IMG/VR virus record: IMGVR_UViG_2506520037_000006
Length of the DNA: 39,680 nt
Source: a virus
Lineage: Duplodnaviria > Heunggongvirae > Uroviricota > Caudoviricetes
Direction: 5' to 3' (one strand)
Part shown: one piece after another, positions 2,501 through 39,250 of the stretch
How positions within the stretch are numbered: the first letter of the stretch is position 1
Layout of the letters: every line of letters starts with the position of its first letter
The notes under the pieces: generated by a model
Databases searched by the model: none
Told to the model about the DNA's origin: nothing
What the model saw: only the letters and a program-made list of their open reading frames with translations
Translations under genes and position numbers: made by a program

Positions 2501-2528
2501 TGTAGGCCGGATAAGGCGTTTACGCCGC
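2501..2528. repeat. Second REP unit of a BIME, interrupted by the Mu insertion (continues at 39246..39254)
   Basis: tgtaggccggataaggcgtttacgccgc; joined to right flank it reads ...ggcgtttacgccgcatccggca, the classic REP core. Confidence 0.7.
2524..2528. repeat. Left copy of 5-bp target-site duplication (GCCGC)
   Basis: gccgc immediately precedes Mu left terminus; identical pentamer at 39246..39250. Confidence 0.85.
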
Positions 2529-2715
2529 TGTATTGATTCACTTGAAGTACGAAAAAAACCGGGAGGACATTGGATTATTCGGGATCTGATGGGATTAGAT
2601 TTGGTGGGGCTTGCAAGCCTGTAGTGCAAATTTTAGTCGTTAATCAATGAAACGCGAAAGATAGTAAAAAATTGCTTTTGTTTCATTGAAAATACGAAAA
2701 ACAAAAACACTGCAA
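2529..2715 (+). other. Mu attL: MuA end-binding sites L1, L2, L3
   Basis: Repeated MuA-site-like motifs (gaagtacgaaaaa, tgaaacgcgaaag, gaaaatacgaaaaac) within the first ~190 bp. Confidence 0.75.
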
Positions 2716-2866
2716 ATCATTTCAATAACAGCTTCAAAAAACGTTCAAAACCGATAACAACCAAGCTGTCACCAAATGACTCATATCACAAATCAGCTTA
2801 TGCCGTTTAGGTATGTTACATGTGTGATTATGTGAGGTGAAGTATGTTTTAGCTGGTTCATGGTTG

Positions 2867-3457
2867 TTATACGGCTTTTTTTACCTCCTGTGGTTCCTGT
2901 GAAGGTACTACAACACTTTCCTGTTCATGAATCCCATACTTTGACAAAATCTCTTTGCGTTTTTCTTCAGGTAATGCATCTAGCATCATCAACGTCTGAA
3001 TACTTTGCTGTGAAAATCCTATAAAGCTGTAAAGTTTCTGTTCATTAAATACAAGAGGCATTAACGCCAACAACCCCCCTTTACTTAAAAGTTTCAGTGC
3101 CTTGCGTGCTTCATCTGGTTCCAGCTCTTCAATCATATTGATTAAGGTTGTGGTTAATTTGTTTATCAGTTCCGAAGAATCCTGTTTCTCATTGGCTTGA
3201 GCACCAGTATCCGGTGTGGATAACCCCAAGTGCGCAATAACTTGCTCTCGTTCTTTGGTGGGCATCGACATCACATCGTATTCAACAGCTTTCCCCCCCT
3301 TGACACCTTCCTTTTTTCGCTTCGTCCAGCCTTGAACATTTGCTCGATAGTGAACACCAGCAACAGATCCAGGCATACCATCAGCAGCCATAATTTCTTG
3401 CGGCGAACACCAAATTGACTTTTCAGTATTATTCTTTTCTATAAAGTTACTTTTCAA
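2867..3457 (-). CDS. c: Mu repressor c (Repc), 196 aa
   Basis: Translation MKSNFIEKNNTEKSIWCSPQEIMAADG... recognised as Mu c; initiation codon appears to be TTG (3455-3457 on minus strand); residue 47 is Arg. Confidence 0.93.
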   Translation of the reverse strand: MKSNFIEKNNTEKSIWCSPQEIMAADGMPGSVAGVHYRANVQGWTKRKKEGVKGGKAVEYDVMSMPTKEREQVIAHLGLSTPDTGAQANEKQDSSELINKLTTTLINMIEELEPDEARKALKLLSKGGLLALMPLVFNEQKLYSFIGFSQQSIQTLMMLDALPEEKRKEILSKYGIHEQESVVVPSQEPQEVKKAV

Positions 3458-3626
3458 AATTTAAACTCCTTATTTATCAACGCGTTAATCAGTAATCAAA
3501 GGAATTTACCAAAAAGCAGCTTTACAAAAAGCTTTTCAGTAATTATCTTTTTAGTAAGCTAGCTAAGTTTTTACACTTAGTTAAATTGCTAACTTTATAG
3601 ATTACAAAACTTAGGAGGGTTTTTAA
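3458..3626. promoter_or_regulatory. Mu early control region: operators O1-O3, divergent promoters Pe/Pc, IHF site, transposition enhancer (IAS)
   Basis: AT-rich 169-bp divergent intergenic region between c and ner; assignment by position from established Mu biology, individual sites not delimited. Confidence 0.65.
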
Positions 3627-3854
3627 ATGTGTTCCAACGAAAAGGCCCGTGATTGGCATCGTGCGGATGTGATTGCGGGACTTAAGAAAAGAAAGCTCTC
3701 TTTATCAGCTCTTTCCCGGCAGTTTGGTTATGCGCCAACTACATTAGCTAATGCGCTAGAACGACACTGGCCAAAGGGTGAGCAGATTATTGCTAACGCC
3801 TTAGAAACTAAACCGGAAGTAATCTGGCCTAGCCGATATCAAGCAGGTGAATAA
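3627..3854 (+). CDS. ner: Ner, DNA-binding negative regulator of early transcription, 75 aa
   Basis: ATG at 3627 preceded by SD aggaggg; translation [23 protein letters not shown]... matches Mu Ner. Confidence 0.95.
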
Positions 3855-3855
3855 C

Positions 3856-5847
3856 ATGGAACTTTGGGTATCACCGAAAGAGTGTGCGAATCTTCCTGGT
3901 TTGCCGAAAACATCGGCTGGTGTGATTTATGTTGCTAAAAAGCAAGGATGGCAAAACCGCACTAGAGCAGGTGTCAAAGGTGGTAAAGCAATTGAATACA
4001 ATGCGAACTCTTTACCTGTTGAAGCGAAAGCGGCGTTATTGCTGAGACAAGGAGAGATTGAAACAAGCCTGGGGTATTTTGAAATCGCCCGCCCCACGCT
4101 GGAAGCCCATGATTATGATCGTGAGGCACTGTGGAGCAAATGGGATAACGCCAGCGATTCCCAGCGCAGACTTGCTGAAAAATGGTTGCCTGCGGTTCAG
4201 GCTGCAGACGAAATGCTGAACCAGGGGATTTCAACGAAAACGGCTTTTGCGACCGTTGCAGGGCATTACCAGGTCAGCGCATCCACTTTGCGGGACAAGT
4301 ATTACCAGGTACAGAAGTTTGCGAAGCCTGACTGGGCGGCTGCACTTGTTGATGGACGTGGAGCATCCCGTCGCAATGTTCACAAAAGTGAATTTGACGA
4401 GGATGCCTGGCAGTTTCTGATTGCAGATTATCTGCGACCGGAAAAACCCGCTTTCCGCAAATGTTATGAGCGTCTGGAACTGGCAGCCCGCGAGCATGGC
4501 TGGAGTATTCCCTCCCGTGCCACGGCCTTTCGCCGGATTCAGCAACTGGACGAGGCAATGGTTGTTGCCTGTCGTGAAGGTGAACATGCACTGATGCATC
4601 TGATACCGGCACAGCAGCGAACTGTGGAACACCTGGACGCCATGCAGTGGATCAACGGCGACGGTTATCTGCATAACGTCTTTGTACGCTGGTTTAACGG
4701 TGATGTGATCCGTCCGAAAACATGGTTCTGGCAGGATGTGAAAACCCGAAAAATTCTGGGCTGGCGCTGCGATGTGAGCGAGAACATTGATTCAATTCGC
4801 CTCTCGTTCATGGATGTTGTGACTCGCTACGGTATCCCGGAGGATTTTCACATCACCATTGATAACACCCGTGGTGCTGCGAATAAATGGCTGACGGGAG
4901 GCGCGCCCAATCGCTACCGCTTTAAGGTAAAAGAGGACGATCCAAAAGGACTGTTTTTACTGATGGGGGCGAAAATGCACTGGACAAGCGTTGTTGCCGG
5001 TAAAGGCTGGGGCCAGGCAAAACCTGTTGAACGTGCTTTCGGTGTTGGTGGGCTTGAGGAATACGTTGATAAGCATCCGGCACTGGCTGGCGCATATACG
5101 GGGCCAAATCCGCAGGCAAAACCTGATAACTATGGCGACCGCGCTGTTGATGCAGAGCTGTTTCTGAAAACCCTTGCCGAAGGTGTGGCGATGTTCAATG
5201 CCAGAACAGGCCGTGAAACAGAAATGTGCGGGGGCAAACTCTCGTTTGATGATGTTTTCGAGCGTGAATACGCCAGAACGATTGTGCGTAAGCCAACCGA
5301 AGAACAAAAACGGATGCTGTTACTGCCTGCCGAGGCGGTGAACGTTTCACGCAAAGGCGAGTTTACGCTTAAAGTTGGCGGCTCCCTTAAAGGCGCGAAA
5401 AACGTTTATTACAACATGGCATTAATGAATGCCGGCGTGAAAAAAGTTGTGGTCAGGTTTGATCCGCAGCAGCTACACAGCACGGTTTATTGCTACACCC
5501 TGGACGGTCGGTTTATCTGTGAAGCGGAATGTCTGGCACCTGTTGCATTTAATGATGCTGCGGCAGGCCGTGAATATCGCCGCCGCCAGAAACAACTGAA
5601 ATCTGCGACGAAAGCAGCCATTAAGGCGCAGAAACAAATGGACGCGCTGGAAGTTGCTGAACTGCTGCCGCAGATAGCCGAACCAGCAGCACCAGAATCA
5701 CGAATTGTTGGTATTTTCCGGCCTTCCGGTAATACGGAACGGGTGAAGAATCAGGAGCGTGATGATGAATACGAAACTGAGCGTGATGAATATCTGAATC
5801 ATTCGCTGGATATTCTGGAACAGAACAGACGTAAAAAAGCCATTTAA
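3856..5847 (+). CDS. A: MuA DDE transposase, 663 aa
   Basis: ATG at 3856 (track ORF starts 9 nt upstream at GTG); translation [32 protein letters not shown]... matches MuA. Confidence 0.97.
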
Positions 5848-5885
5848 TTAACGTTTAAACAAAATTTAATTACGAGGTTATTCAG

Positions 5886-6824
5886 ATGAATATTTCCGAT
5901 ATTCGCGCAGGACTGCGCACGCTTGTAGAAAATGAAGAAACCACCTTTAAACAAATTGCTCTTGAGAGCGGGCTTTCTACCGGAACTATCAGTAGTTTTA
6001 TCAATGATAAGTACAACGGGGATAACGAGCGTGTTTCACAAATGCTGCAACGCTGGCTGGAAAAATATCATGCAGTGGCAGAACTACCTGAACCGCCCCG
6101 CTTTGTGGAAACGCAGACGGTAAAACAAATCTGGACAAGTATGCGTTTTGCCAGCCTGACTGAAAGTATTGCTGTTGTATGTGGCAATCCTGGTGTGGGC
6201 AAAACCGAAGCGGCCCGTGAATATCGCCGCACCAATAACAATGTCTGGATGATCACCATTACGCCATCCTGTGCCAGCGTTCTGGAATGTCTTACTGAAC
6301 TGGCGTTTGAGCTGGGAATGAATGACGCACCACGCCGTAAAGGGCCGCTCTCCCGCGCCCTGCGACGTCGCCTTGAAGGTACACAGGGGCTGGTTATCAT
6401 CGACGAAGCTGATCATCTTGGTGCCGAAGTTCTGGAAGAACTCCGCCTGTTACAGGAATCAACCCGTATTGGCCTTGTGCTGATGGGAAATCACCGGGTT
6501 TATTCAAATATGACGGGGGGTAACAGAACGGTTGAATTTGCCCGTCTGTTTTCCCGTATTGCAAAGCGCACTGCAATTAATAAAACCAAAAAAGCCGATG
6601 TAAAAGCTATTGCGGATGCCTGGCAGATTAACGGCGAAAAAGAACTGGAGTTATTACAGCAGATTGCGCAGAAACCAGGTGCGCTTCGCATTCTGAATCA
6701 TTCACTTCGCCTTGCAGCCATGACGGCTCACGGTAAAGGTGAGCGTGTTAACGAAGATTATCTGCGTCAGGCTTTCCGTGAATTAGACCTGGACGTTGAT
6801 ATTTCAACGCTGCTGCGTAATTAA
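5886..6824 (+). CDS. B: MuB, ATP-dependent target DNA activator (AAA+), 312 aa
   Basis: Translation MNISDIRAGLRTLVENEETTFKQIALESG...; Walker A GNPGVGKT; SD gagg upstream. Confidence 0.97.
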   Translation: MNISDIRAGLRTLVENEETTFKQIALESGLSTGTISSFINDKYNGDNERVSQMLQRWLEKYHAVAELPEPPRFVETQTVKQIWTSMRFASLTESIAVVCGNPGVGKTEAAREYRRTNNNVWMITITPSCASVLECLTELAFELGMNDAPRRKGPLSRALRRRLEGTQGLVIIDEADHLGAEVLEELRLLQESTRIGLVLMGNHRVYSNMTGGNRTVEFARLFSRIAKRTAINKTKKADVKAIADAWQINGEKELELLQQIAQKPGALRILNHSLRLAAMTAHGKGERVNEDYLRQAFRELDLDVDISTLLRN

Positions 6825-6839
6825 GAAGGAGAAGAAATT

Positions 6840-7067
6840 ATGATGGCCCGAAATATAAAAATGGCAACGGATGCGCAGAACTGGTTACAGGCGCGCGGGA
6901 GTCATGTAAATGAATCATATCTCGGCGTGGCGCGTCCGATTCTTGAAATCACTTACCCACCGGTGGAACTGGTAAAAAACGCGGTCAGAATTATGGAGCA
7001 TAAGTCCGGGGTGGCCCGTTCTGTATGGACGGCCCGTCTTAATGGTTGCCAGATTATCTGGAGATAA
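6840..7067 (+). CDS. kil: Kil, host-killing small early protein, 75 aa
   Basis: First ORF downstream of B with SD aaggagaag; position matches Mu kil. Confidence 0.7.
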
Positions 7068-7069
7068 CG

Positions 7070-7300
7070 ATGTGTATTAAAGCTGAAAAATATATTGAAT
7101 GGGTTAAACACTGTCAGTGCCACGGGGTGCCGCTGACGACATATAAATGCCCCGGATGTGGTGAACAGATTATGACGCAATGCTCACCCGAAAAGGAAAT
7201 TCGGGATTCCCTGACATGTTGTCCGTGGTGCAGCGCAGTTTTCTTTAAACAGGTAAAAGGCGCGAAGGTAAAAGCCAGCGCGGTTATTCAGAATCAATAA
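7070..7300 (+). CDS. Early semi-essential region protein, Cys-rich zinc-ribbon-like, 76 aa
   Basis: ATG at 7070 with SD ggagataacg, 2 nt after kil stop; CxC/CPGC/CCPWC cysteine clusters. Confidence 0.6.
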   Translation: MCIKAEKYIEWVKHCQCHGVPLTTYKCPGCGEQIMTQCSPEKEIRDSLTCCPWCSAVFFKQVKGAKVKASAVIQNQ

Positions 7301-7311
7301 GGTGAAACAAA

Positions 7312-7575
7312 ATGGCAAAAGTAATTATTGAAATTAAAAATACAGTATCTGGAATTAAAGGACGGAATTTGCGCACCAGCATTGCGGTGGACGGTAGTGC
7401 GGAACTGGACGGTGATGAGGGTACACTTGCTGGCATGGTGGCGTTACTGGTGCTTAATAAAAGCCAGAAAATAATTAATGAGTCAGCCCATGAAGCTATT
7501 GAGATTTTGAAAAACGATGGTGTCATCACCAGTGGTCGTGTCACTGAAATGGCTGTTGAAAAAACATGTCACTGA
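7312..7575 (+). CDS. Early semi-essential region hypothetical protein, 87 aa
   Basis: ATG at 7312 with SD aaggtga; same-strand tightly packed operon. Confidence 0.6.
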   Translation: MAKVIIEIKNTVSGIKGRNLRTSIAVDGSAELDGDEGTLAGMVALLVLNKSQKIINESAHEAIEILKNDGVITSGRVTEMAVEKTCH

Positions 7576-8009
7576 AAGGAACGCTGACAATGAATGTCAA
7601 AATCCGAAATGAAATTCAGGCATTAATCCGAATTCAGGAACGCAATAACAACGGTGGTGAATTACGCGAGTTTATTTGTGCGCGTGAAGTTGATGGCTAT
7701 GGTGAAAAAACTTACCTGATTACTTTCGACCATTACAGCATCTGTGCGCGTTATTGCGGCGAAAGCATATCCCGCGCCATTGCGTCTGGCGATGCGTTTA
7801 ACGTGGATTTATGGGAGTACGTCATGGACCGGGAATACATCTGCGCATCAGACCCTGAAGCCCGTGAAATGTGGCAGCGTATCTGGCGCGATTACCGGTT
7901 AATGGCAAAAGGCTGGGCGCGCTGCTGTTATTCCTCGCTTGCCCTGAAAGCGGTTCAGTTATCGCTGCGGCATATTCCGGCATCACTGCGCGAGCCTCTG
8001 CTGTACTGA
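7566..8009 (+). CDS. Early semi-essential region hypothetical protein, 147 aa (alternative start 7590)
   Basis: ORF overlapping upstream gene by 10 nt; second in-frame ATG at 7590 has SD aaagga. Confidence 0.6.
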   Translation: MSLKGTLTMNVKIRNEIQALIRIQERNNNGGELREFICAREVDGYGEKTYLITFDHYSICARYCGESISRAIASGDAFNVDLWEYVMDREYICASDPEAREMWQRIWRDYRLMAKGWARCCYSSLALKAVQLSLRHIPASLREPLLY

Positions 8010-8309
8010 ATGGTGACTGACATGAAGTGTAATCGTAAGCGCTGGTCACGCGAAGACCGGGAATTTATCGAAGCCAACGTCGGGAAAATGACCGTTGAAG
8101 AAATGGCGGAAAAACTGAAAGTCGCCACAACCGCCCTCCGGGCACATGCCAGAAGGCACGGAATATCATTGTGTGTATACCGAATCAGTGAACACGACAA
8201 ATATTTATGTCGTGAACTTTATAAAGAAGGACTGGATATTCATGTTATTGCCCGAAAGATGGAATTAAGCAATCGAGCTGTATCCAGCATTGTATACAGC
8301 GGATATTAA
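8010..8309 (+). CDS. Early semi-essential region protein, possible HTH DNA-binding, 99 aa
   Basis: ATG at 8010 overlapping upstream stop (TGAATG); helix-turn-helix-like segment KMTVEEMAEKLKVATTALRAHARRHG. Confidence 0.55.
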   Translation: MVTDMKCNRKRWSREDREFIEANVGKMTVEEMAEKLKVATTALRAHARRHGISLCVYRISEHDKYLCRELYKEGLDIHVIARKMELSNRAVSSIVYSGY

Positions 8310-8328
8310 TTAACAGGAGCTTTAATTT

Positions 8329-8853
8329 ATGGCTAAACCAGCAAAACGTATCAAGAGTGCCGCAGCGGCTTATGTGCCACAAAACCGCGATGCGGTGATT
8401 ACCGATATTAAACGCATCGGGGATTTACAGCGCGAAGCATCACGTCTGGAAACGGAAATGAATGATGCCATCGCGGAAATTACGGAGAAATTTGCGGCCC
8501 GGATTGCACCGATTAAAACCGATATTGAAACCCTTTCAAAAGGCGTTCAGGGATGGTGTGAAGCGAACCGCGACGAACTGACGAACGGCGGCAAAGTGAA
8601 GACGGCGAATCTTGTCACCGGTGATGTATCGTGGCGGGTCCGTCCACCATCAGTAAGTATTCGTGGTATGGATGCAGTGATGGAAACGCTGGAGCGTCTT
8701 GGCCTGCAACGCTTTATTCGCACGAAGCAGGAAATCAACAAGGAAGCGATTTTACTGGAACCGAAAGCGGTCGCAGGCGTTGCCGGAATTACAGTTAAAT
8801 CAGGCATTGAGGATTTTTCTATTATTCCATTTGAACAGGAAGCCGGTATTTAA
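8329..8853 (+). CDS. gam: Gam, Ku-like DNA-end-binding host-nuclease inhibitor, 174 aa
   Basis: Translation MAKPAKRIKSAAAAYVPQNRDAVITDIKRIGDLQREASRLETEMNDAIAEITEKF... matches Mu Gam; SD caggagc. Confidence 0.92.
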   Translation: MAKPAKRIKSAAAAYVPQNRDAVITDIKRIGDLQREASRLETEMNDAIAEITEKFAARIAPIKTDIETLSKGVQGWCEANRDELTNGGKVKTANLVTGDVSWRVRPPSVSIRGMDAVMETLERLGLQRFIRTKQEINKEAILLEPKAVAGVAGITVKSGIEDFSIIPFEQEAGI

Positions 8854-8951
8854 TACCACCATTAATATTTAATTAATTCACATTCTTTTAATTATGGCGC
8901 GATACGTCAGGAGATTGCTCGCGCCTGAAACAGATTACTGAGGAATAAAAC

Positions 8952-9482
8952 ATGGTTGATGCAAAAATTCTGAATGGTGTCAGCACATTATTACGGGCTT
9001 ACGGACGCCTGACCTGCGGAGTTCTGGCTGAAAAAATGAATATGCTGCCCTCGTCAATGGTGTATTTCCTGCGTGATGCGGTTGATGCCGGAGTGCTCAC
9101 CGAATGCAACGGATTTTATGACGTTCCGCGCCCGCGTCCGACGCCGCCTGTAAGACGAAACGCAACTGAGCAGCCTGCTGTTGATGATGCGGTGTGGTGC
9201 AACTGGCGTCGCTCATTACCCTGGGTGGAAGGTAATACCATCCCCGCGCTGGCAAAAGAGTTTGCGACGGGCGTGCTGACCTGTGAGTCAGTCCACATTG
9301 TTGCTGAGGTGGATAACAGAATGTGCGAACAGGGAATGCCCCGTTTTGTGATGGCTTATATCGATATCCGGCTGGGGCGTTTTATTTGCAGTTCAAGCGT
9401 CTGGAATATCACCGACCATGTACTGCGTTATCTCATTCTTGATTGTTCTCCGGCTCCCGCAGCGGTGCAGGAGGTGGCGTGA
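8952..9482 (+). CDS. Early semi-essential region hypothetical protein, 176 aa
   Basis: ATG at 8952 with SD tgaggaa; translationally coupled to next ORF (TGATG overlap at 9480-9484). Confidence 0.6.
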   Translation: MVDAKILNGVSTLLRAYGRLTCGVLAEKMNMLPSSMVYFLRDAVDAGVLTECNGFYDVPRPRPTPPVRRNATEQPAVDDAVWCNWRRSLPWVEGNTIPALAKEFATGVLTCESVHIVAEVDNRMCEQGMPRFVMAYIDIRLGRFICSSSVWNITDHVLRYLILDCSPAPAAVQEVA

Positions 9483-10012
9483 TGTTTTTTAAAACGTCAA
9501 ATCCCGCAGCACTGCTGGCGTGGGACCAGTTTATGGCGGACTGTCTGAAACTACGCGAAGAAGCCCGCCATCTTGATAAGGTTCTGGGTTGTGGTTGCCG
9601 GTCAGTATTCAGCACAAGTATTGGTGGGCGTTATTTTCATGGTGTGAACTTTCCGGGGAATGAGCGCCCTTTCTCGCGGGAGCTGTGGACCGTACAACGG
9701 CCCGCATCAGGTAACAGTTGCAGGCCCAGAACTTCGCGGATACCTGCTCATCTCAGGGAGCAGGCAAGAGAGCTGGCGAAAATATGGCAGGAGAATATTC
9801 CGGTCACTTACGCCCGCACAGACGCTCTTTTACCCGCACTGGGACTGGATTTCAGCGCAACAATATTCGGGCCGCTCCAGTGGTTCCGTGTTGGTGATGT
9901 GATTTACGTCATGACGGGGATGACACCCGCGCAAGGCCGCATGACTGAAATCCTTTCTGACGAATTTATCCGGGCGCAAAAACAGGCGGAGGTAAACAAT
10001 GGAAAACAATAA
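9482..10012 (+). CDS. Early semi-essential region hypothetical protein, 176 aa
   Basis: ATG at 9482 with SD gcaggaggtg; track ORF begins upstream at TTG 9443. Confidence 0.6.
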   Translation: MFFKTSNPAALLAWDQFMADCLKLREEARHLDKVLGCGCRSVFSTSIGGRYFHGVNFPGNERPFSRELWTVQRPASGNSCRPRTSRIPAHLREQARELAKIWQENIPVTYARTDALLPALGLDFSATIFGPLQWFRVGDVIYVMTGMTPAQGRMTEILSDEFIRAQKQAEVNNGKQ

Positions 10013-10181
10013 AACATCGTATTCGTGGCTGGGGAAATTCACCACGGTGAAACAGGAATGCCCGACCTGCGGTAATGAATCCCCTGAATATCTGAAAGAG
10101 TGCCCTCATTGTGGCGGGCTGAAATGCAACCACTGCGATATGGGCGATGACACAGCGTGCATGAATTGTGAAGGTGAATAA
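9999..10181 (+). CDS. Small zinc-ribbon protein with four CxxC pairs, 60 aa
   Basis: CPTC, CPHC, CNHC, CMNC motifs; SD ggcggagg before ATG 9999. Confidence 0.55.
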   Translation: MENNKTSYSWLGKFTTVKQECPTCGNESPEYLKECPHCGGLKCNHCDMGDDTACMNCEGE

Positions 10182-10182
10182 T

Positions 10183-10485
10183 ATGAATAATGAAACTAAA
10201 TTTACTCCCCTTAATATTGATAACGTCATGGCTGAAAAAGGGATGCTGGAACGTGTTCGCGCTATCGTTGAATATGGTATTAAGCATAATCTCACCGCCA
10301 GAGAAGTCCGTGACATTATCAACCGCGAAATGAATCGTCTGGAAACAGTAGTGGCACTGCAAAATGAAACAGCCCGCGAGGAGTACATCCGCCGCAGGCT
10401 GGGGCTATCAGACCAGGATATTGTTACTGACGCTCATGTGTTTGAGGCTTTTGAGATCCGTCAGCATCTGGGTCTAACGAACTGA
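10183..10485 (+). CDS. Early semi-essential region hypothetical protein, 100 aa
   Basis: ATG at 10183 with SD aaggtga, 1 nt after upstream stop; track ORF starts at GTG 10168. Confidence 0.6.
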   Translation: MNNETKFTPLNIDNVMAEKGMLERVRAIVEYGIKHNLTAREVRDIINREMNRLETVVALQNETAREEYIRRRLGLSDQDIVTDAHVFEAFEIRQHLGLTN

Positions 10486-10690
10486 TAATGTCTTCCATGA
10501 TCTTTGACAGTTGCAGTTTTTCGCGGCGGCTTGTTCTCATTGCAGGCGCATCTTTTAAAATCTCTGCTGAAGAGCTGAAAATGGCTTTGCCCTCTTCTGC
10601 GGTGATGATCGCCTTCTTCACCAGAAGGCGCACCAGTGCTGATGCAATCGCATAACCTGCAACATCATAAGGTTGTACATTATTTTCCAT
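10424..10690 (-). CDS. Candidate leftward-transcribed small protein (88 aa) inside the early region; function unknown
   Basis: ATG at 10688-10690 (minus) preceded by SD agagagga with 5-nt spacer; fills the only gap in rightward coding; overlaps 3' end of upstream rightward gene by 62 nt. Confidence 0.3.
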   Translation of the reverse strand: MENNVQPYDVAGYAIASALVRLLVKKAIITAEEGKAIFSSSAEILKDAPAMRTSRREKLQLSKIMEDIISSLDPDADGSQKPQTHERQ

Positions 10691-10760
10691 AAAATCCTCT
10701 CTGATTGATGTGTAAATTCAGGCGGTGTTGCAGCACCGCCCCCTTTCCGGAGGTACGATC

Positions 10761-11698: not shown

Positions 11699-11703
11699 AC
11701 AGT

Positions 11704-11728
11704 AAAGCCGGTTAATCCGGCTTTTTTT
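11704..11728 (+). terminator. Rho-independent terminator ending the early transcript (Mu t9.2)
   Basis: gccgg-ttaat-ccggc hairpin followed by ttttttt directly after mor stop. Confidence 0.85.
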
Positions 11729-11775
11729 ACGTCCTCAATATCCTGTGATGAATAACCGTACCGGGGAAAATCATC

Positions 11776-12349: not shown

Positions 12350-12358
12350 AGGGGCACC

Positions 12359-12478: not shown

Positions 12479-12490
12479 CCGGGGGAAAAT

Positions 12491-12936: not shown

Positions 12937-12939
12937 TGT

Positions 12940-14832: not shown

Positions 14833-14843
14833 CAGGAGGCGTG

Positions 14844-30223: not shown

Positions 30224-31355
30224 TACCGTCACACTGCGAGCGGATGGCAGGCTGTTTACCGGCTGGACGTCAGTCTCTGTCACCCGCTCGATTGAATCCG
30301 TAGCCGGATATTTTGAGCTGGGGGTGAACGTGCCACCGGGCACGGATTTATCCGGGCTGGCTCCGGGGAAGAAGTTCACGCTGGAAATCGGGGGGCAGAT
30401 TGTCTGCACCGGTTATATCGATTCACGGCGACGCCAGATGACCGCTGACAGTATGAAAATCACTGTCGCCGGACGTGACAAAACGGCTGACCTGATTGAC
30501 TGTGCTGCCGTTTACAGTGGCGGACAGTGGAAAAACCGCACACTGGAGCAGATTGCGCGTGACCTGTGCGCTCCTTATGGCGTTACCGTTCGCTGGGAGC
30601 TTTCCGATAAGGAAAGTTCGGCAGCTTTTCCCGGCTTCACGCTGGACCATTCAGAAACCGTTTATGAGGCGCTGGTGCGTGCCTCCCGCGCACGCGGTGT
30701 ACTGATGACCAGCAATGCCGCCGGAGAGCTGGTATTCAGCCGGGCTGCCAGCACAGCCACTGATGAGCTGGTTCTCGGAGAAAATCTGCTGACACTGGAT
30801 TTTGAGGAAGACTTCCGCGACCGGTTCAGCGAATACACCGTCAAGGGGTATGCCCGCGCAAATGGTGCTGAGGGTGATGATATTGATGCGAAAAGTATCG
30901 TATCCCGGAAAGGGACCGCCACTGACAGTGATGTGACCCGTTACAGACCGATGATCATCATTGCTGACAGCAAGATTACGGCGAAGGATGCACAGGCCCG
31001 CGCCCTGCGTGAGCAACGCCGCAGACTGGCAAAATCCATCACCTTTGAGGCAGAAATTGACGGATGGACTCGCAAGGACGGGCAACTCTGGATGCCGAAC
31101 CTGCTGGTCACTATTGATGCCTCGAAATATGCCATCAAAACCACGGAATTACTGGTCAGCAAAGTCACCCTGATACTGAATGACCAGGACGGGCTGAAAA
31201 CCCGCGTCAGCCTTGCACCACGCGAAGGCTTTCTGGTGCCGGTTGAAAGCGACCGTAAAAACAGGAAAGGCGGCGACAGTAACGGCGGTATTGATGCGCT
31301 GGTTGAAGATTATTATCGCAGACACCCGGAGAAAACGCCGCCGTGGAAAGAGTAA
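30216..31355 (+). CDS. Q: Q (gp44), baseplate hub protein (P2 gpD-like), 379 aa
   Basis: Synteny and size. Confidence 0.8.
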
Positions 31356-31936
31356 ATGATTCCGCCTTGAACCGCCTGCTGACGCCGCTGATGCGTCGTG
31401 TGCGCCTGATGCTTGCGCGCGCTGTTGTTAACGTGATTAACGACGGGCGAAAGGTTCAGAACCTGCAGGTCGGTCTGCTGGATGATGAGGAATCCGATGA
31501 AGTGGAGCGCCTGCAAAATTACGGGCATTTCAGCGTTCCCCTGCCGGGCGCAGAGGCGCTGATTGCCTGTGTAGGCGCACAACGTGATCAGGGGATTGCT
31601 GTTGTGGTGGAAGACCGCCGCTACCGCCCGACAAATCTTGAACCGGGTGATGCAGGCATTTACCACCACGAGGGGCATCGTATCAGGCTGACAAAGGACG
31701 GACGCTGCATCATTACCTGTAAAACGGTTGAGGTTTACGCTGATGAAAGTATGACCGTTGACACACCCAGAACCACGTTTACCGGCGACGTTGAGATCCA
31801 GAAAGGTCTGGGCGTTAAAGGTAAAAGCCAGTTCGACAGCAATATTACTGCCCCGGATGCCATCATCAATGGCAAATCGACGGATAAGCATATCCACCGT
31901 GGCGACAGCGGCGGAACCACAGGGCCGATGCAATGA
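31343..31936 (+). CDS. V: V (gp45), baseplate central spike protein, up to 197 aa (start uncertain; ATG at 31391 possible)
   Basis: Synteny; track ORF starts at GTG 31343. Confidence 0.72.
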   Translation: MERVNDSALNRLLTPLMRRVRLMLARAVVNVINDGRKVQNLQVGLLDDEESDEVERLQNYGHFSVPLPGAEALIACVGAQRDQGIAVVVEDRRYRPTNLEPGDAGIYHHEGHRIRLTKDGRCIITCKTVEVYADESMTVDTPRTTFTGDVEIQKGLGVKGKSQFDSNITAPDAIINGKSTDKHIHRGDSGGTTGPMQ

Positions 31937-32370
31937 CCGATTTAGCCATTATCTGGACGAACGGACGCGGCGATATTGCGCAGGATGGTATTGATATGCT
32001 GACCGACGACAGCCTGACAACCGATGTGACAATCTCCCTGTTTACCGACCGGCGCGCGCTGGATTCTGACACGCTGCCGGATGGTTCAGATGATCGCCGT
32101 GGATGGTGGGGTGACAGTTACCGCGACCGCCCCATCGGTTCGCGGTTGTGGCTGTTATCACGTGAAAAAGCCACGCCGGATACGCTGGAACGCGCCAGAG
32201 GGTATGCCGAAGAGGCGCTGGAATGGCTGAAAACAGCGGGCCGGGTAAGTGCGATTAACGTCAGAGCGGAACAGTTACATCAGGGCTGGTTATACCTCTA
32301 CATTGCACTGACATTACCGGATGGTTCCGTTATTCCTTATGAGTTTAAAGCAGCATTTAACGGGGTTTAA
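31933..32370 (+). CDS. W: W (gp46), baseplate wedge protein (P2 gpW-like), 145 aa
   Basis: ATGA overlap with V stop; synteny. Confidence 0.8.
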   Translation: MTDLAIIWTNGRGDIAQDGIDMLTDDSLTTDVTISLFTDRRALDSDTLPDGSDDRRGWWGDSYRDRPIGSRLWLLSREKATPDTLERARGYAEEALEWLKTAGRVSAINVRAEQLHQGWLYLYIALTLPDGSVIPYEFKAAFNGV

Positions 32371-33453
32371 ATGGCTTATTCACCACCGACATTATCATCG
32401 CTGATTGCCCGTACAGAACAGAATATTGAACAGCGCCTGCCGGGTAGCTGGCCTCAGGCCCGTGAAAAAACGCTGAGTGCCATTGCTTATGCTCAGGCGG
32501 GCCTTGCTGCCGGTTGTCACGAGCATATTTCATGGGTTGGACGGCAGATTATCCCGTCGACAGCAGATGAAGATGAGTTGCTGGAGCACTGCCGGTTCTG
32601 GGGCGTGCGCCGCAAACAGGCGACAGCCGCCAGCGGCCCGCTGACTGTCACCACATCGGCAGCGACCACCATTCCTGCCGGTACACGCTGGCAGCGTGCT
32701 GATGGTGTGGTTTACAGCCTGGCTGATACCATTGTGATTGACCGTGCAGGAACGACGGAAATTACCGTTACCGCACTGGCTGCCGGTGAAGCAGGAAATA
32801 CCGGTGAGAATACCCTTTTAACGTTGATCACCCCGGTTGCCTGTGTTGTTTCCGATGCCATCACTGTAAAAGGGTTTTCCGGTGGAGCTGATATTGAGAG
32901 TGCAGCGGAGCTGCTGTCACGGCTGGAATATCGTGTCCAGTATCCTCCGTTCGGCGGTAATCAGTTTGATTACGTTCGCTGGGCACGTGAAGTCAGCGGT
33001 GTTACCCGTGCCTGGTGTTTTCCGACATGGAAAGGCGGTGGCACAGTCGGGGTGACGTTTGTTATGGATAACCGGAGCAATATTTTTCCGCAACCGGCAG
33101 ACGTGGAACGCGTGGCGGATTATATCGCCGGTCATACTGACCCGATCACTGGTCTGATTGTCGGACAGCCTGACGGTGTAAATGTCACGGTATTTGCGCC
33201 AAAGGCAAAGCCGGTAAATCCACGGATTTATATATCACCGAAGACAGCCGAACTGAAACAGGCTATTACCAACGCCATTAATACCATGTTTTTTAATGAG
33301 GTGATGCCGGGCGGCGCACTTGCCCCCTCCCGTATTATCCGTGCGGTGGCAGGTGTTACCGGTCTGGATGATTTTGAAGTGCGTTTCCCGACAGAGATCC
33401 AGCGTTCGGAGAATACGGAACTCTTAACAGCGGGGACAATTGAATGGCTGTAA
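32371..33453 (+). CDS. R: R (gp47), baseplate J-like protein, 360 aa
   Basis: Synteny and size. Confidence 0.8.
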   Translation: MAYSPPTLSSLIARTEQNIEQRLPGSWPQAREKTLSAIAYAQAGLAAGCHEHISWVGRQIIPSTADEDELLEHCRFWGVRRKQATAASGPLTVTTSAATTIPAGTRWQRADGVVYSLADTIVIDRAGTTEITVTALAAGEAGNTGENTLLTLITPVACVVSDAITVKGFSGGADIESAAELLSRLEYRVQYPPFGGNQFDYVRWAREVSGVTRAWCFPTWKGGGTVGVTFVMDNRSNIFPQPADVERVADYIAGHTDPITGLIVGQPDGVNVTVFAPKAKPVNPRIYISPKTAELKQAITNAINTMFFNEVMPGGALAPSRIIRAVAGVTGLDDFEVRFPTEIQRSENTELLTAGTIEWL

Positions 33454-33986
33454 CACCCTGGCAGACGGCCTTTCTGCAATTACTGCCGTCAGGGCTTGCC
33501 TGGAATAAAAGCCCCGACAGCAAATTATCTGCGCTGGCGCAGGCCATCAGCGACGTGATTGCCACTGCGGCGGATGATGCGCGGCAAATGCTGCGGGAGC
33601 GTTTCCCGTCCACATCCCGCTGGTATCTGGGGGAGTGGGAATCATTTCTGGGGTTGCCGGACTGTACCAGCGAAAACGGCACCCTGTCCGAACGCCAGCG
33701 GGCTGCCGCGAATAAAATGCGTATGACCGGCAATCTGAGTCGGCGCTTTTATGAATGGCTGGCTGCGCAGTACGGTTTTACCGTCAGGCTGACGGATTCC
33801 ACAGAAGGCCAGTGGGTTACGCAGGTCAATATTTACGGTATTAAAAATTATCGCAACGCAACGGTGCTGGATAATGTTCTGACGCCGTTACGTGTTTATG
33901 AATCGGGTGCGCTGGAATGTTTACTGGAGAAATATAAACCCGCGCATCAGATTTATAAATTTGTTTACCATGACGGAGATAACTAA
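33444..33986 (+). CDS. gp48, baseplate/tail protein (P2 gpI-like), 180 aa
   Basis: Overlaps R end; precedes tail fibre gene. Confidence 0.75.
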   Translation: MAVTPWQTAFLQLLPSGLAWNKSPDSKLSALAQAISDVIATAADDARQMLRERFPSTSRWYLGEWESFLGLPDCTSENGTLSERQRAAANKMRMTGNLSRRFYEWLAAQYGFTVRLTDSTEGQWVTQVNIYGIKNYRNATVLDNVLTPLRVYESGALECLLEKYKPAHQIYKFVYHDGDN

Positions 33987-35500
33987 TGTTTTATATTGAT
34001 AACGACAGCGGCGTAACCGTCATGCCGCCCGTATCCGCCCAGCGTAGTGCTATCGTTCGCTGGTTTTCAGAAGGTGACGGGAATAATGTTATCACATGGC
34101 CCGGCATGGACTGGTTTAATATTGTGCAGGCGGAGTTATTAAACACGCTGGAAGAAGCCGGTATTCAACCGGATAAAACAAAATTAAACCAGCTTGCACT
34201 GTCCATTAAAGCCATTATGAGCAATAACGCGCTGCTGATAAAAAATAACCTCAGCGAAATTAAAACTGCCGGGGCATCAGCACAGCGTACAGCACGTGAA
34301 AATCTGGATATCTATGATGCCAGCCTGAACAAAAAAGGACTCGTTCAGCTAACCAGTGCCACTGACAGCCCCAGTGAAACGCTGGCAGCCACCGCAAAAG
34401 CGGTGAAAATTGCAATGGATAATGCCAATGCCCGTCTGGCAAAAGACCGGAACGGAGCAGATATTCCCAATAAGCCGCTGTTTATCCAAAACCTCGGTTT
34501 ACAGGAAACGGTAAACAGGGCTAGGAACGCCGTGCAAAAGAATGGCGATACCTTGTCCGGTGGGCTTACTTTTGAAAACGACTCAATCCTTGCCTGGATT
34601 CGAAATACTGACTGGGCAAAGATTGGATTTAAAAATGATGCCGACAGCGACACTGATTCATACATGTGGTTTGAAACAGGCGACAACGGCAATGAATATT
34701 TCAAATGGAGAAGCAAACAAAGCACCACAACAAAAGACCTGATGAATCTTAAATGGGATGCTTTGTCTGTTCTTGTCAATGCCATTGTAAATGGCGAAGT
34801 CATATCAAAATCAGCAAACGGCCTCCGTATTGCTTATGGTAATTACGGATTCTTTATTCGTAATGATGGTTCAAATACATACTTCATGTTGACAAACTCC
34901 GGTGACAACATGGGGACTTATAACGGATTAAGGCCATTATGGATTAATAACGCTACTGGCGCTGTTTCGATGGGGCGTGGTCTTAATGTTTCAGGGGATA
35001 CACTTTCAGACCGTTTTGCTATTAACAGCAGTAATGGTATGTGGATTCAGATGCGCGATAACAACGCTATCTTTGGGAAAAATATAGTTAACACTGATAG
35101 CGCTCAGGCGTTGCTTCGCCAGAATCACGCCGACCGCAAATTTATGATTGGCGGTCTGGGAAATAAGCAATTTGGCATCTACATGATTAATAACTCAAGG
35201 ACAGCCAATGGCACCGATGGTCAGGCGTACATGGATAATAACGGAAACTGGTTATGCGGTGCTCAGGTCATTCCGGGAAATTACGCCAACTTTGACTCCC
35301 GCTACGTGCGTGACGTTCGGCTGGGAACTCAGTCACTGACTGGCGGCTTGTCTCGTGATTACAAGGCGCCATCCGGTCATGTTATTACAGGTTTTCATAC
35401 CAATGGCGACTGGGAAATGCAGGGAGGGGATGACAAGGTTTATATCCGTCCGGTTCAGAAGAATATCAACGGTACCTGGTATAATGTAGCGAGCGCCTGA
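33986..35500 (+). CDS. S: S, tail fibre: constant part Sc (33986..34480) fused to variable part Sv inside the G segment, 504 aa
   Basis: ORF crosses the left G inverted repeat in frame (peptide [11 protein letters not shown] encoded by the repeat). Confidence 0.88.
34481..34514. repeat. Left 34-bp inverted repeat of G segment (Gin crossover site gixL)
   Basis: ttatccaaaacctcggtttacaggaaacggtaaa; exact reverse complement at 37532..37565. Confidence 0.9.
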
Positions 35501-35502
35501 TT

Positions 35503-36030
35503 ATGATGCATCTGAAAAACATTAAGTCAGAAAATCCAAAAACTAAAGAGCAATATCAGCTAACAAAGAATTTTGATGTTATCTGGTTATGGTCCGAAGA
35601 CGGGAAAAACTGGTATGAAGAAGTAAATAACTTTCAGGACGACACCATAAAGATTGTATACGACGAAAATAATATTATTGTTGCCATAACCAAAGATGCC
35701 TCAACGCTTAATCCCGAAGGCTTTAGCGTCGTTGAGATTCCAGATATAACAGCCAACCGCCGCGCTGATGATTCAGGAAAGTGGATGTTTAAGGATGGAG
35801 CTGTAGTTAAACGGATTTATACGGCAGACGAACAGCAACAACAAGCCGAATCACAAAAGGCCGCATTGCTTTCCGAAGCTGAATCAGTCATCCAGCCGCT
35901 GGAACGCGCTGTCAGGCTGAATATGGCGACGGATGAGGAACGCGCACGACTGGAGTCATGGGAACGCTACAGTGTTCTGGTCAGCCGTGTGGATACGGCA
36001 AATCCCGAATGGCCACAAAAGCCTGAATAA
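35503..36030 (+). CDS. U: U, tail fibre assembly chaperone, 175 aa
   Basis: Translation [24 protein letters not shown]...; paralogous to U' on the opposite strand. Confidence 0.88.
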
Positions 36031-36035
36031 AAATT

Positions 36036-36055
36036 AAGGCCCGATAGCGGGCCTT
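36036..36055. terminator. Hairpin between convergent U and U' (terminator for either orientation)
   Basis: aaggcccg-atag-cgggcctt stem-loop, T-run on minus strand side. Confidence 0.6.
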
Positions 36056-36058
36056 CTC

Positions 36059-36592
36059 TCATTCTGGTTGTTCTGGAAACGTTACTGGCAGGCTGGAGGT
36101 GTCTGTGGATTCGACCTTCTGCGCGTAGAGCATCCACTCTGTTAATTTTTGTTTATTCTCGTCGGAAATGATGCCCAGCCGTAGCTGTGAGTCCCATAGC
36201 TGTGTTTTATCCCTGACGAGCTGTAGCAGGCTTTGCTTTTCATTTTCCGCTTGTTGCCTCTGCTCTTCCTCGGTATAAGTTCGCTTTATCACTACACCAT
36301 CTTTGAACATCCATTTACCCGAAATATCAGCCCGGCGATTTGCTGTAATATCAGGAACCTCAACGACGTTTGCGCCTTCTGGATTAATTGCTGAAACATC
36401 CTTTTCAATACAAATAATAACGCCGTTGTGGTCATAGACCATTTTCAACGTATCAGGCTGAAAGTTCTTTTGTTCCTCATACCAGTTTTTCCCATCCTCT
36501 GTATAAAGCCATTTGATGTTAAATTGTTTCGTTAGCTGGTATTGCTCTTTTGTTTTAGGGTTGCCAGCAGTAATATTTTTTAAGTGCATCAT
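36059..36592 (-). CDS. U': U', alternative tail fibre assembly chaperone (silent in this orientation), 177 aa
   Basis: Translation [24 protein letters not shown]..., paralogue of U. Confidence 0.88.
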   Translation of the reverse strand: MMHLKNITAGNPKTKEQYQLTKQFNIKWLYTEDGKNWYEEQKNFQPDTLKMVYDHNGVIICIEKDVSAINPEGANVVEVPDITANRRADISGKWMFKDGVVIKRTYTEEEQRQQAENEKQSLLQLVRDKTQLWDSQLRLGIISDENKQKLTEWMLYAQKVESTDTSSLPVTFPEQPE

Positions 36593-36594
36593 AA

Positions 36595-37565
36595 TTAAAT
36601 ACTCCCCGCGTTATACCACGTTCCATTAATGCAATACTGAATTGGCCTTGCCTGAGTTGTATCAATTAATTCATCACGGTTTCCGTTAACTGAACCCGTA
36701 ACGACATAACCTGACCTGTCAGACCAGCCGGGACCATTCCATGTCTGAACAGATGACAGACCGCCAAGACGAATACCTGTAATAAACCTTGAGTTACATT
36801 CTGCCTGCGTATATGCACCAACATCTCCCGCTGATGGCTTACGTGTTGTGGTGTAAATTTCTGACCAGTCAGCTTCGAATCCGTAACCATCACGCGCTGA
36901 ACGATAAAAAATACCGCCGTTCCTGTAATTCACACGGAACTGTACGGCAGGGCAACTCCCCGTATTCATATTGAAGTGGAGGATTAATGTCGATGCGCCA
37001 CCAATATTTGCGTTATAGACCCCGCTATTCCAGTTCCAGCCAACAGCTTTATCATTTCCGACAGTGCTTCCTGTTTGTCCTAAAGCAAATGCAGGCTGCT
37101 GGTTTTTCGTGTTGTAGTCTCGTCGCCAGCCAGGAGCATAAGCATCACCATGATTAATATAAGTGAATTGAGCGTTAGTGATTCCGCCGCCGCTGGACGT
37201 ACTCGGCGTAGTAACGCGTATGGTCATTGCGCCGCGAGTGCCAATAACTTCCACCACAGCACCTGCAAGACAAATATTTCCGCAACCTGTATCTGTAATG
37301 ACCTTATTGTTTGCATAAGCCCATGAGCCTTTGCACATCCAGTAAGGATGGTTAAATGCCCCCTGACTCTCCAGCCACGAAATAAATTGTGCGGTTGTCC
37401 AGACCTGACTATCGCCACCAATATTCAGCCATGCGCTATATGCGCGACAGGCCCCAATATTTTTGGTGAAGGTATCTTTTCCTGGAATATCTGCGCCGTT
37501 CTGGTTTTGCTGTAATGCGCCAGAAGCCTGATTTACCGTTTCCTGTAAACCGAGGTTTTGGATAA
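36595..37565 (-). CDS. S': S'v, promoterless alternative variable part of the tail fibre gene (would fuse to Sc after G inversion)
   Basis: Minus-strand reading frame passes in frame through the right inverted repeat encoding [11 protein letters not shown]; no upstream constant part in this orientation. Confidence 0.8.
37532..37565. repeat. Right 34-bp inverted repeat of G segment (gixR)
   Basis: tttaccgtttcctgtaaaccgaggttttggataa, reverse complement of 34481..34514. Confidence 0.9.
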
Positions 37566-37619
37566 TGGTCGATTTTGGCACGCATGGCATGATTGGCGCT
37601 TTTAAACAGGAGATCCAGA

Positions 37620-38201
37620 GTGCTGATTGGCTATGTAAGGGTATCAACAAATGACCAGAATACAGACCTGCAACGAAACGCTCTTGTTTGTGCAGGATGT
37701 GAACAAATATTTGAAGATAAATTAAGCGGAACAAGGACAGACCGACCGGGATTAAAACGCGCTTTAAAGCGCCTTCAAAAAGGTGACACACTGGTTGTCT
37801 GGAAACTGGATCGCCTCGGGCGAAGCATGAAACATTTGATTTCTCTCGTAGGGGAATTACGAGAGCGAGGGATTAATTTTCGCAGTCTTACTGACAGTAT
37901 TGATACGTCATCTCCAATGGGGCGTTTTTTCTTCCACGTTATGGGTGCCCTGGCTGAAATGGAACGAGAACTAATTATCGAGCGAACGATGGCTGGACTT
38001 GCTGCCGCCAGAAATAAAGGCCGTATTGGTGGGCGACCACCTAAACTAACCAAAGCGGAATGGGAGCAGGCCGGGCGTTTATTAGCACAAGGAATCCCCC
38101 GCAAGCAGGTTGCATTGATCTACGATGTGGCCCTGTCAACTCTGTATAAAAAACACCCCGCGAAACGAGCGCATATAGAAAACGACGATCGAATCAATTA
38201 A
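37620..38201 (+). CDS. gin: Gin, serine site-specific DNA invertase, 193 aa
   Basis: GTG start 37620 after SD aggagatcc; translation (M)LIGYVRVSTNDQNTDLQRNALV... with catalytic Ser in VSTNDQ and C-terminal HTH; track ORF starts upstream at TTG 37593. Confidence 0.95.
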   Translation: MLIGYVRVSTNDQNTDLQRNALVCAGCEQIFEDKLSGTRTDRPGLKRALKRLQKGDTLVVWKLDRLGRSMKHLISLVGELRERGINFRSLTDSIDTSSPMGRFFFHVMGALAEMERELIIERTMAGLAAARNKGRIGGRPPKLTKAEWEQAGRLLAQGIPRKQVALIYDVALSTLYKKHPAKRAHIENDDRIN

Positions 38202-38295
38202 ATCGATCGGTAATACAGATCGATTATGCCCCAATAACCACACTCAACCCATGATGTTTTTTAAGATAGTGGCGAATTGATGCAAAGGAGGTGAG
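38187..38295 (+). promoter_or_regulatory. mom operon control region: three GATC (Dam) sites and the C-activated Pmom
   Basis: GATC at 38187-38190, 38205-38208, 38218-38221 followed by ttatgccccaataaccacactcaaccca and candidate -10 taagat; SD aaggaggtgag before com. Confidence 0.8.
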
Positions 38296-38484
38296 ATGAA
38301 ATCAATTCGCTGTAAAAACTGCAACAAACTGTTATTTAAGGCGGATTCCTTTGATCACATTGAAATCAGGTGTCCGCGTTGCAAACGTCACATCATAATG
38401 CTGAATGCCTGCGAGCATCCCACGGAGAAACATTGTGGGAAAAGAGAAAAAATCACGCATTCTGACGAAACCGTGCGTTATTGA
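38296..38484 (+). CDS. com: Com, zinc-finger translational activator of mom, 62 aa
   Basis: Translation [32 protein letters not shown]... matches Mu Com. Confidence 0.95.
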
Positions 38485-39130
38485 GTATGAAGGCCAGATT
38501 GTTGGCTATGGTTCAAAGGAGCTGCGCGTTGAAACCATATCCTGCTGGCTGGCCCGCACAATTATTCAGACAAAGCACTATTCCCGCCGTTTTGTGAATA
38601 ACTCTTACCTTCACCTGGGGGTATTCAGCGGACGCGATCTGGTTGGCGTTCTCCAGTGGGGATATGCCCTTAACCCCAACTCAGGTCGTCGTGTCGTGCT
38701 TGAAACGGATAACCGGGGCTATATGGAGTTGAACCGCATGTGGCTACACGACGACATGCCCCGCAACTCTGAATCACGGGCCATCAGCTACGCGCTGAAA
38801 GTTATCAGATTACTGTATCCGTCAGTGGAGTGGGTTCAGTCCTTTGCAGATGAACGCTGCGGACGCGCAGGCGTTGTGTATCAGGCGTCGAATTTTGATT
38901 TTATTGGCAGTCATGAAAGTACGTTCTACGAGCTGGATGGTGAGTGGTATCACGAGATAACGATGAACGCGATTAAGCGAGGTGGACAACGAGGCGTGTA
39001 TTTACGGGCTAATAAAGAGCGTGCCGTGGTACACAAATTTAATCAGTATCGCTACATCAGATTCCTGAACAAACGAGCAAGGAAGCGGCTAAATACCAAA
39101 CTATTCAAGGTTCAGCCATACCCTAAGTGA
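38435..39130 (+). CDS. mom: Mom, DNA adenine modification enzyme (anti-restriction), 231 aa from GTG 38435 (in-frame ATG at 38405 would give 241 aa)
   Basis: Overlaps 3' end of com in another frame; translation ...[25 protein letters not shown]...; last gene before right end. Confidence 0.9.
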
Positions 39131-39169
39131 TCCCCATGTAATGAATAAAAAGCAGTAATTAATACATCT

Positions 39170-39245
39170 GTTTCATTTGAAGCGCGAAAGCTAAAGTTTT
39201 CGCATTTATCGTGAAACGCTTTCGCGTTTTTCGTGCGCCGCTTCA
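39170..39245 (+). other. Mu attR: MuA end-binding sites R3, R2, R1
   Basis: Repeats gaagcgcgaaagctaaagttttcgc / cgtgaaacgctttcgcg / tttttcgtgcgccgcttca ending in CA at 39245. Confidence 0.8.
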
Positions 39246-39250
39246 GCCGC
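39246..39250. repeat. Right copy of 5-bp target-site duplication (GCCGC), also the continuation of the interrupted REP unit
   Basis: gccgc followed by atccggca. Confidence 0.85.

Follow-up and report, generated by a model that had tools for sequence, protein, structure and literature searches.

Does this stretch of DNA carry a complete and functional phage Mu, and how did that phage come to lie where it does? To answer this, we compared the window (the whole stretch analysed, 39,680 nt) with the Mu reference genome AF083977 (NC_000929), with empty-site alleles of the same locus, with other copies of Mu and with published accounts. The comparisons indicate that positions 2529-39245 are very probably the entire Mu prophage, with a wild-type (c+) repressor allele, of the laboratory and industrial strain Escherichia coli W.

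Identity, ends and gene content of the element

Position-by-position comparison of the element (2529..39245, plus strand) with AF083977 revealed that the two are collinear and identical at 36,714 of 36,717 bases, with three substitutions and no insertions or deletions; the length, 36,717 bp, is exactly that of the reference, and both halves of the element gave 100% megablast matches. Gene order, ends and G orientation are likewise as in the reference. The left junction (2528/2529) reads ...TTTACGCCGC followed by TGTATTGATTCACTTG..., and the right junction (39245/39246) reads ...GCGCCGCTTCA followed by GCCGCATCC... The termini have the form 5′-TG...CA-3′ (TGTATTGATTCACTTGAAG... on the left and ...CGTGCGCCGCTTCA on the right) and match the reference fully; the left- and right-end sequences of Mu hold the MuA binding sites. 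The earlier note had named the element as Mu with these boundaries and this length, had read the genes from c to mom as uninterrupted and had proposed alignment to the Mu reference as the check. The alignment bears out all of this, with no frameshift or deletion in A, B or the structural genes, and 54 of the 54 annotated Mu coding sequences translate without internal stops in the window. The sequence features that define membership of phage Mu (Muvirus mu) are all present: collinear identity, termini, 5-bp duplication, MuA and MuB, the G segment with Gin, and com-mom. An Rfam scan of the whole window at the gathering thresholds gave no matches.

Gene coordinates were obtained by adding an offset of 2528 to the AF083977 annotation, and all Mu genes listed here but c lie on the plus strand. 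The c repressor gene (2867..3457, minus strand), placed by reference comparison, Pfam and homologue alignment, is followed by ner, the negative regulator of early transcription (3627..3854), which is identical in sequence to the reference. The open frames of A, encoding the MuA DDE transposase (3856..5847), and B, encoding the MuB AAA+ target-DNA activator (5886..6824), are also identical to the reference. Further early and middle genes, including kil, gam, gemA, mor and C, span 6843..12913, and the lysis, terminase and head genes 13008..22583. Within the latter lies the cut position of the central strong gyrase site (SGS; 20407..20408, Mu 17879-17880), again in identical sequence. Connector, tail, baseplate and tail-fibre genes, including S and U, occupy 22650..36030. 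The invertible G segment (34494..37553; reference boundaries Mu 31966 and 35025) shows no inversion and is in the G(+) orientation, and together with gin, the gene for its serine invertase (37620..38201), and the com and mom DNA-modification module (38296..39130) it is identical to the reference.

Insertion site in the Flag-2 locus

The element is flanked on both sides by GCCGC (2524..2528 and 39246..39250), which the earlier note had read as a target-site duplication. A 5-bp match on both flanks would arise by chance about once in 1024 cases. The empty-site alleles are more decisive than this chance argument: the site reconstructed with one GCCGC was found in strains L65, EC43 and EC16 as one ungapped piece of 100% identity. 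In L65, the end of the left flank (locus position 3500) and the start of the right flank (3496) overlap by 5 bp; the empty site of L65 therefore holds a single GCCGC. The proposed duplication is upheld.

To the left of the insertion, positions 2460..2528 consist of host palindromic repeats, taken to be of REP/BIME type, and Mu inserted within one such palindrome, GCCGGATAAGGCGTTTACGCCGC/ATCCGGC. A 930-bp empty-site query had matches in every one of the 5426 genomes, with a median of 26 locations per genome, pointing to a dispersed repeat. GCCGC fits the N-Y-G/C-R-N target preference of Mu. The flanking host genes belong to the Flag-2 locus. On the left, an open reading frame of 814 aa (1..2445, plus strand) is a glycosyltransferase gene according to Pfam and the W-family annotation, with a GT2 domain and a weak CDP-glycerol glycerophosphotransferase-like region; on the right, a cytidylyltransferase-like gene of 131 aa (39285..39680, minus strand) is supported by Pfam PF01467 and genome annotation. 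Mu very probably entered the host chromosome by MuA/MuB-mediated transposition, in which each of the two Mu 3′ ends was attached to one target strand, with a 5-bp stagger at GCCGC, within the REP palindrome between the glycosyltransferase and cytidylyltransferase genes, and repair of the two 5-nt gaps then produced the duplication.

In reverse complement, the window corresponds to positions of approximately 292,365-332,044 on the chromosome of E. coli W (ATCC 9637), in the Flag-2 locus. This prophage is already known and not new: Archer et al. (2011; PMC3032704) reported a Mu prophage in W, located in non-coding DNA of the Flag-2 locus. The passages of that paper at hand give its presence and location, and not the c allele or the base-level relation to the reference. 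The two junctions and a 25-kb internal segment of the window were found at 100% identity in the W records NC_017635 and NC_017664. The chance that the insertion is an assembly artefact or a contamination of the source record is negligible, given that both junctions are 100% identical in nine separate W-family genome records from several laboratories (two of W itself, LY180, KO11FL, AQ15, SL112, B-766, HBUT-L and hubt-sl) and that an engineered derivative has, precisely at the Mu insertion site, an FRT scar flanked by arms from the Mu ends.

A wild-type repressor allele and three reference-private differences

The three substitutions leave the non-coding bases of Mu untouched. At window position 3318 (Mu 790), the window has C and AF083977 has T, which changes residue 47 of the c repressor (Arg in the window, Gln in the reference) and is the sole amino-acid difference between the two. 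The other two are silent: C versus G at 21800 (Mu 19272), in codon 45 of gene T, and C versus T at 32037 (Mu 29509), in codon 35 of gene 46. The Mu copy in the chromosome of the laboratory strain S17-1, also 36,717 bp and c+ (R47), differs from the window by one base, at Mu 32841, and carries the window alleles at three of the three sites where AF083977 differs, so the AF083977 differences are private to the reference. This copy sits at another chromosomal location, with unequal 5-bp flanks (GCCGG and GCGGG); the Mu of strain ST18 is identical to the window over the 25 kb tested. Strains S17-1 and ST18 carry RP4-2-Tc::Mu.

Residue 47 was also compared across homologues of c. Gln47 is carried by AF083977, by the Mu fragment of BW2952 (of lambda-placMu type, with an internal stop in its A gene), by the RK2-derived plasmid pHB101 and by three near-identical database proteins. 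Arg is present in all 20 of the remaining homologues whose alignment covers residue 47, down to 39% identity. Among the homologues aligned, Gln47 was thus seen solely in laboratory-lineage sequences, and this distribution argues that the window carries the wild-type c+ allele and not Mu cts62, in line with the view of the earlier note. That note had also given cts62 as R47Q, which agrees with the Gln47 of AF083977, the BW2952 fragment and the RK2-derived plasmid. Vogel in 1991 and Morgan in 2002 are said to have described cts62 as R47Q and the reference as Mu cts62; a literature search on cts62 as R47Q or Arg47 did not return a published definition, and the assignment of Gln47 to cts62, drawn from allele comparison, fits the data.

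Expected mode of induction and functional competence

In the c product, only PF02316, the Mu DNA-binding domain, scored above the Pfam curated cut-off, and the S24/LexA-type autocleavage (peptidase) domain that marks the repressor of an SOS-inducible (LexA/CI-type) prophage was not found at that cut-off. The Mu repressor differs from LexA-like CI repressors and is degraded by ClpXP (PMC10584840), and temperature does not induce Mu c+ lysogens (PMC3820752). Because c has no LexA-like cleavage domain, mitomycin C, which the earlier note had proposed, is doubtful as an induction test and may fail to induce even a fully functional Mu prophage. Induction by heat or by LexA-like SOS cleavage should accordingly not be expected, as far as the mode of induction can be judged from the repressor.

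The wild-type repressor (R47) would keep the prophage silent, and its coding sequences and cis sites are those of functional laboratory Mu, apart from the absence of the cts62 (Q47) change; loss of the repressor should lead to replicative transposition and phage production. It is very improbable that the prophage, although its frames are open, is cryptic or defective, for instance because of a lesion in regulation or in a cis site. The window differs from a functional, plaque-forming laboratory phage only in the c+ allele and the two synonymous changes, with no non-coding base involved, and the S17-1 copy is identical to it bar one base.

Rearrangements in W derivatives

In the KO11 lineage of W, a left terminus of Mu directly abuts frdA, in an exact junction, with ACCGT on both frdA halves, and this junction is present in two independent assemblies, which suggests that transposase has used Mu ends in a W background. 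The second Mu copy of this lineage is truncated at Mu 2173 and includes 18 unexpectedly oriented nt of the R end; the rearrangement is not a clean product of replicative transposition and is suggestive of activity only, and it is not certain to have arisen in W. The duplicate c gene of KO11FL, HBUT-L and hubt-sl had prompted a model with two full copies of Mu produced by replicative transposition, which we rejected since the records show one full copy and a 2,173-bp left-end duplicate. A literature search on optical mapping or inversion in KO11FL found no relevant paper.

A record labelled "DH5alpha" proved to be a W-type strain in which Mu is replaced by an FRT scar. The 230-bp insert at the Mu site in the "DH5alpha" records was considered as a natural remnant of Mu deletion; this reading was discarded, as the insert consists of an FRT scar left by engineering, with a 70-bp homology arm on each side.

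Origin of the W prophage

Two histories could account for a Mu of this genotype in W. It is possible, at rather less than even chances, that all laboratory Mu goes back to E. coli W as its natural host. The W copy has no private differences, agreeing with AF083977 or the S17-1 copy at every variable site, so that its genotype looks ancestral to laboratory Mu; every sequenced W lineage carries Mu at the same site; and other natural relatives, among the matches listed, are at least 1.4% diverged. A transfer from W to a K-12 stock in the 1950s would explain the ancestral-type genotype, the shared site and the diverged natural relatives together. The discovery of Mu was made in a single K-12 Hfr stock and not in W, in an account that does not give the origin of the prophage of that stock (PMC3562280).

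The second history, to which we likewise give tentative credence, short of an even chance, is that Mu is not native to W: laboratory Mu c+ would have lysogenised a W stock before the split of the culture-collection lines, which would make the insertion a laboratory artefact. The discovery of Mu in K-12 and not in W counts in favour of this. The W Mu is essentially identical to laboratory Mu, with one base different from the S17-1 copy and three from AF083977, whereas natural-isolate relatives, among the matches listed, reach at most 98.6% identity over 25 kb. In near relatives of W whose flanks are identical the site is empty, and the insertion is therefore recent. Against this, the junctions are shared by nine W-lineage records, including B-766 and KO11 derivatives, so any lysogenisation predates the splits between these lines, and the absence of W-private differences is equally expected if W is the source. 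Between W as source and W as recipient, the direction of transfer lies beyond what sequence alone can give.

Significance and comparison with other Mu phages

Whichever way Mu travelled, users of the W, KO11, LY180, SL and HBUT lines work with what appears to be a complete, functional transposing phage that is not induced by heat. Such a prophage can cause insertions, inversions and deletions, and the KO11 frdA rearrangement and the deletion of the prophage by recombineering both point to Mu as a rearrangement risk. The W copy also provides a c+ reference sequence for Mu and shows that the three AF083977 differences are private to that record; both leave the understanding of the Mu mechanism unchanged.

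The genome architecture of D108, SfMu, Mu_3F6, PhiR68_1 and the prophages of wild E. coli is the same as that of the window Mu. These natural relatives show 96-98.6% identity over most of the genome (approximately 1.4-4% nucleotide divergence), with coverage gaps concentrated at the left (early) end, and the near-identity of the W Mu with laboratory Mu is unmatched by any of the natural relatives listed.

The element is a complete Mu genome

Mu occupies window positions 2529–39245, where the left junction reads ...GGCGTTTACGCCGC followed by TGTATTGATTCACTTGAAG... (window 2528/2529) and the right junction ...CGTGCGCCGCTTCA followed by GCCGCATCCGGC... (window 39245/39246), with 36,717 bp between them and GCCGC at both flanks. 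In a megablast search of the phage collection both halves of the element matched Escherichia phage Mu (AF083977 / NC_000929) at 100%, and a position-by-position comparison with AF083977 revealed equal length, no indels and three substitutions. The first, at Mu 790 (window 3318), replaces the T of the reference by C and changes residue 47 of the repressor c from Gln to Arg. The other two are synonymous: G to C at Mu 19272 (window 21800; gene T codon 45) and T to C at Mu 29509 (window 32037; gene 46 codon 35). None of the 54 coding sequences annotated in Mu is broken by an internal stop, and the G segment has the orientation of AF083977. Thus both the junctions and the open frames claimed in the earlier note hold, the former exactly at each end. 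An Rfam scan of the window returned no match.

To predict the empty site, we joined 500 bp from the left side of Mu, GCCGC included, to 430 bp from the right side, without the second GCCGC. Strains L65, EC43 and EC16 of E. coli contain this sequence ungapped and 100% identical, and many further genomes have it at 99.6–99.9% identity. In L65 the alignment of the left flank ends at locus position 3500 and that of the right flank begins at 3496; the proposed target duplication, which called for a single GCCGC in empty-site alleles, survives this comparison, as the flanks overlap by exactly these 5 bp. The Mu target lies within a palindrome, GCCGGATAAGGCGTTTACGCCGC/ATCCGGC (window 2460–2528 and 39246–39256), which we take to be a REP/BIME-type repeat; the genes on its two sides encode an 814-aa glycosyltransferase and a cytidylyltransferase-like protein. 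Because the query contains this short palindromic repeat, it had matches in each of the 5426 E. coli genomes, with a median of 26 sites per genome.

The window is part of the E. coli W chromosome

Both junctions were 100% identical in nine genome records, namely E. coli W (NC_017635, NC_017664), LY180, KO11FL, AQ15, SL112, B-766, HBUT-L and hubt-sl, and the window corresponds to W positions 292,365–332,044 in reverse complement. Because the insertion is common to all W lineages, it is older than their separation. A Mu prophage only in W among four 'safe' E. coli strains is reported by Archer et al. (2011, PMC3032704), and the object was therefore already known. The element is the Mu prophage already recorded for E. 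coli W, with wild-type c and a sequence all but identical to that of laboratory Mu; its description in the earlier note is accurate but ordinary.

Repressor allele and predicted activity

The c allele was assigned by comparing sequences. The AF083977 c gene is identical to c in BW2952 (NC_012759.1), where it lies on a left-end fragment of Mu that adjoins malG and has an internal stop in A, consistent with a lambda placMu element with cts62 and Aam1093. The same c sequence stands on the RK2-derived transfer plasmid pHB101 (NZ_CP178860.1), in a Mu left-end fragment adjoining a truncated aph(3') gene; both c genes, of the cts62-type Gln47 allele, differ from the window at Mu 790 only. Among 24 database homologues of c, Gln47 occurs in three near-identical proteins, one of them (P0001) labelled 'Repressor protein c', and Arg47 in all 20 of the others that align across this position, down to 39% identity. 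Since Gln47 is found in near-identical laboratory-type sequences and Arg in the remaining aligned homologues, Arg47 is the ancestral, wild-type residue and Gln47 a marker of the laboratory lineage, which supports the reading of a c+ lysogen.

In the established Mu mechanism, MuA cuts at the terminal CA of each Mu end, the 3'-OH ends attack the target 5 bp apart at a site chosen by MuB, and gap repair leaves the 5-bp duplication, the early promoter being held off by the c repressor (PMC3562280). The Mu ends, the duplication, intact A and B and wild-type c are all seen in the window. We infer that the prophage is live, because, the c+ residue excepted, all its amino acids and all its non-coding bases are those of functional laboratory Mu.

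The only domain of the c protein above the Pfam curated score cut-off was the Mu DNA-binding domain (PF02316), and an S24 peptidase domain was not found above that cut-off. Published work describes the repressor of Mu as distinct from the LexA type and as inactivated via ClpXP (PMC10584840). For these reasons mitomycin C, suggested in the earlier note for induction, is a doubtful gauge of prophage competence. Heat does not induce Mu c+ lysogens (PMC3820752).

Rearranged and engineered Mu sites in other records

Two 4.83-Mb 'DH5alpha' records (NZ_CP026085.1 3776628–3780787, insert at about 2001–2230 of this region, and NZ_CM135829.1) have the W-type Flag-2 site with a 230-bp insert replacing Mu, in which 70 bp of the Mu left end are followed by a pKD3/pKD4-type FRT scar, then by 70 bp of the Mu right end, and finally by GCCGC. 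The 'DH5alpha' record is a mislabelled W-type strain with an engineered Mu deletion.

A large inversion marks the KO11 lineage, and in KO11FL (NC_017660.1 4753000–4798000, at about 3835–6165 of this region, and 290000–334000, at about 39517) and HBUT-L (NZ_CP104442.1) the original two Mu junctions lie far apart. In both, the full Mu copy retains the cytidylyltransferase junction and at its left terminus abuts frdA precisely at ACCGT. The remaining half of frdA ends ...CCATACCGT, giving ACCGT on each half, the pattern of a Mu target duplication; beyond it come 18 nt of Mu right end, unexpectedly oriented, then Mu 2173 to 1, then the original glycosyltransferase junction. A full second Mu copy at frdA was rejected, as only Mu 1–2173 and the 18 nt of inverted right end are present there. 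The frdA structure is real, because two independent assemblies agree. It suggests Mu-end activity in the KO11 lineage followed by a secondary rearrangement, which accounts for the structure only in part. HBUT-L also carries an IS10-like element 27 bp into the 3' part of frdA. Inside Mu, three bases of KO11FL differ from the window (Mu 2974, 17338 and 21838) and one of HBUT-L; those of KO11FL are either private mutations or errors of an older assembly.

Relation to laboratory Mu and natural relatives

The chromosomal Mu of the laboratory strain S17-1 (NZ_CP040667.1 3029500–3069000) is likewise 36,717 bp long and differs from the window by a single base, C to T at Mu 32841 in the S tail-fibre gene. 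Its 5-bp flanks are unlike each other (GCCGG and GCGGG). Because the S17-1 copy shares the window alleles at Mu 790, 19272 and 29509, the three differences of AF083977 are private to that sequence, and the W prophage carries the apparently ancestral genotype of laboratory Mu. Mu of the laboratory strain ST18 is identical to the window over the 25 kb compared. The best natural-isolate relatives, among the matches listed, reach 96.5–98.6% identity over the same 25 kb, and D108, SfMu, Mu_3F6 and PhiR68_1 96–98%. By its near-identity with laboratory Mu, set against at most 98.6% for the natural relatives listed, W Mu belongs to the same clone as laboratory Mu. The first discovery of Mu was in a single Hfr strain of K-12 from the collection of Adelberg (PMC3562280). 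Either that strain obtained Mu from W, or laboratory Mu lysogenised a W stock, and the sequence gives no choice between the two directions. W is a possible natural source of laboratory Mu.
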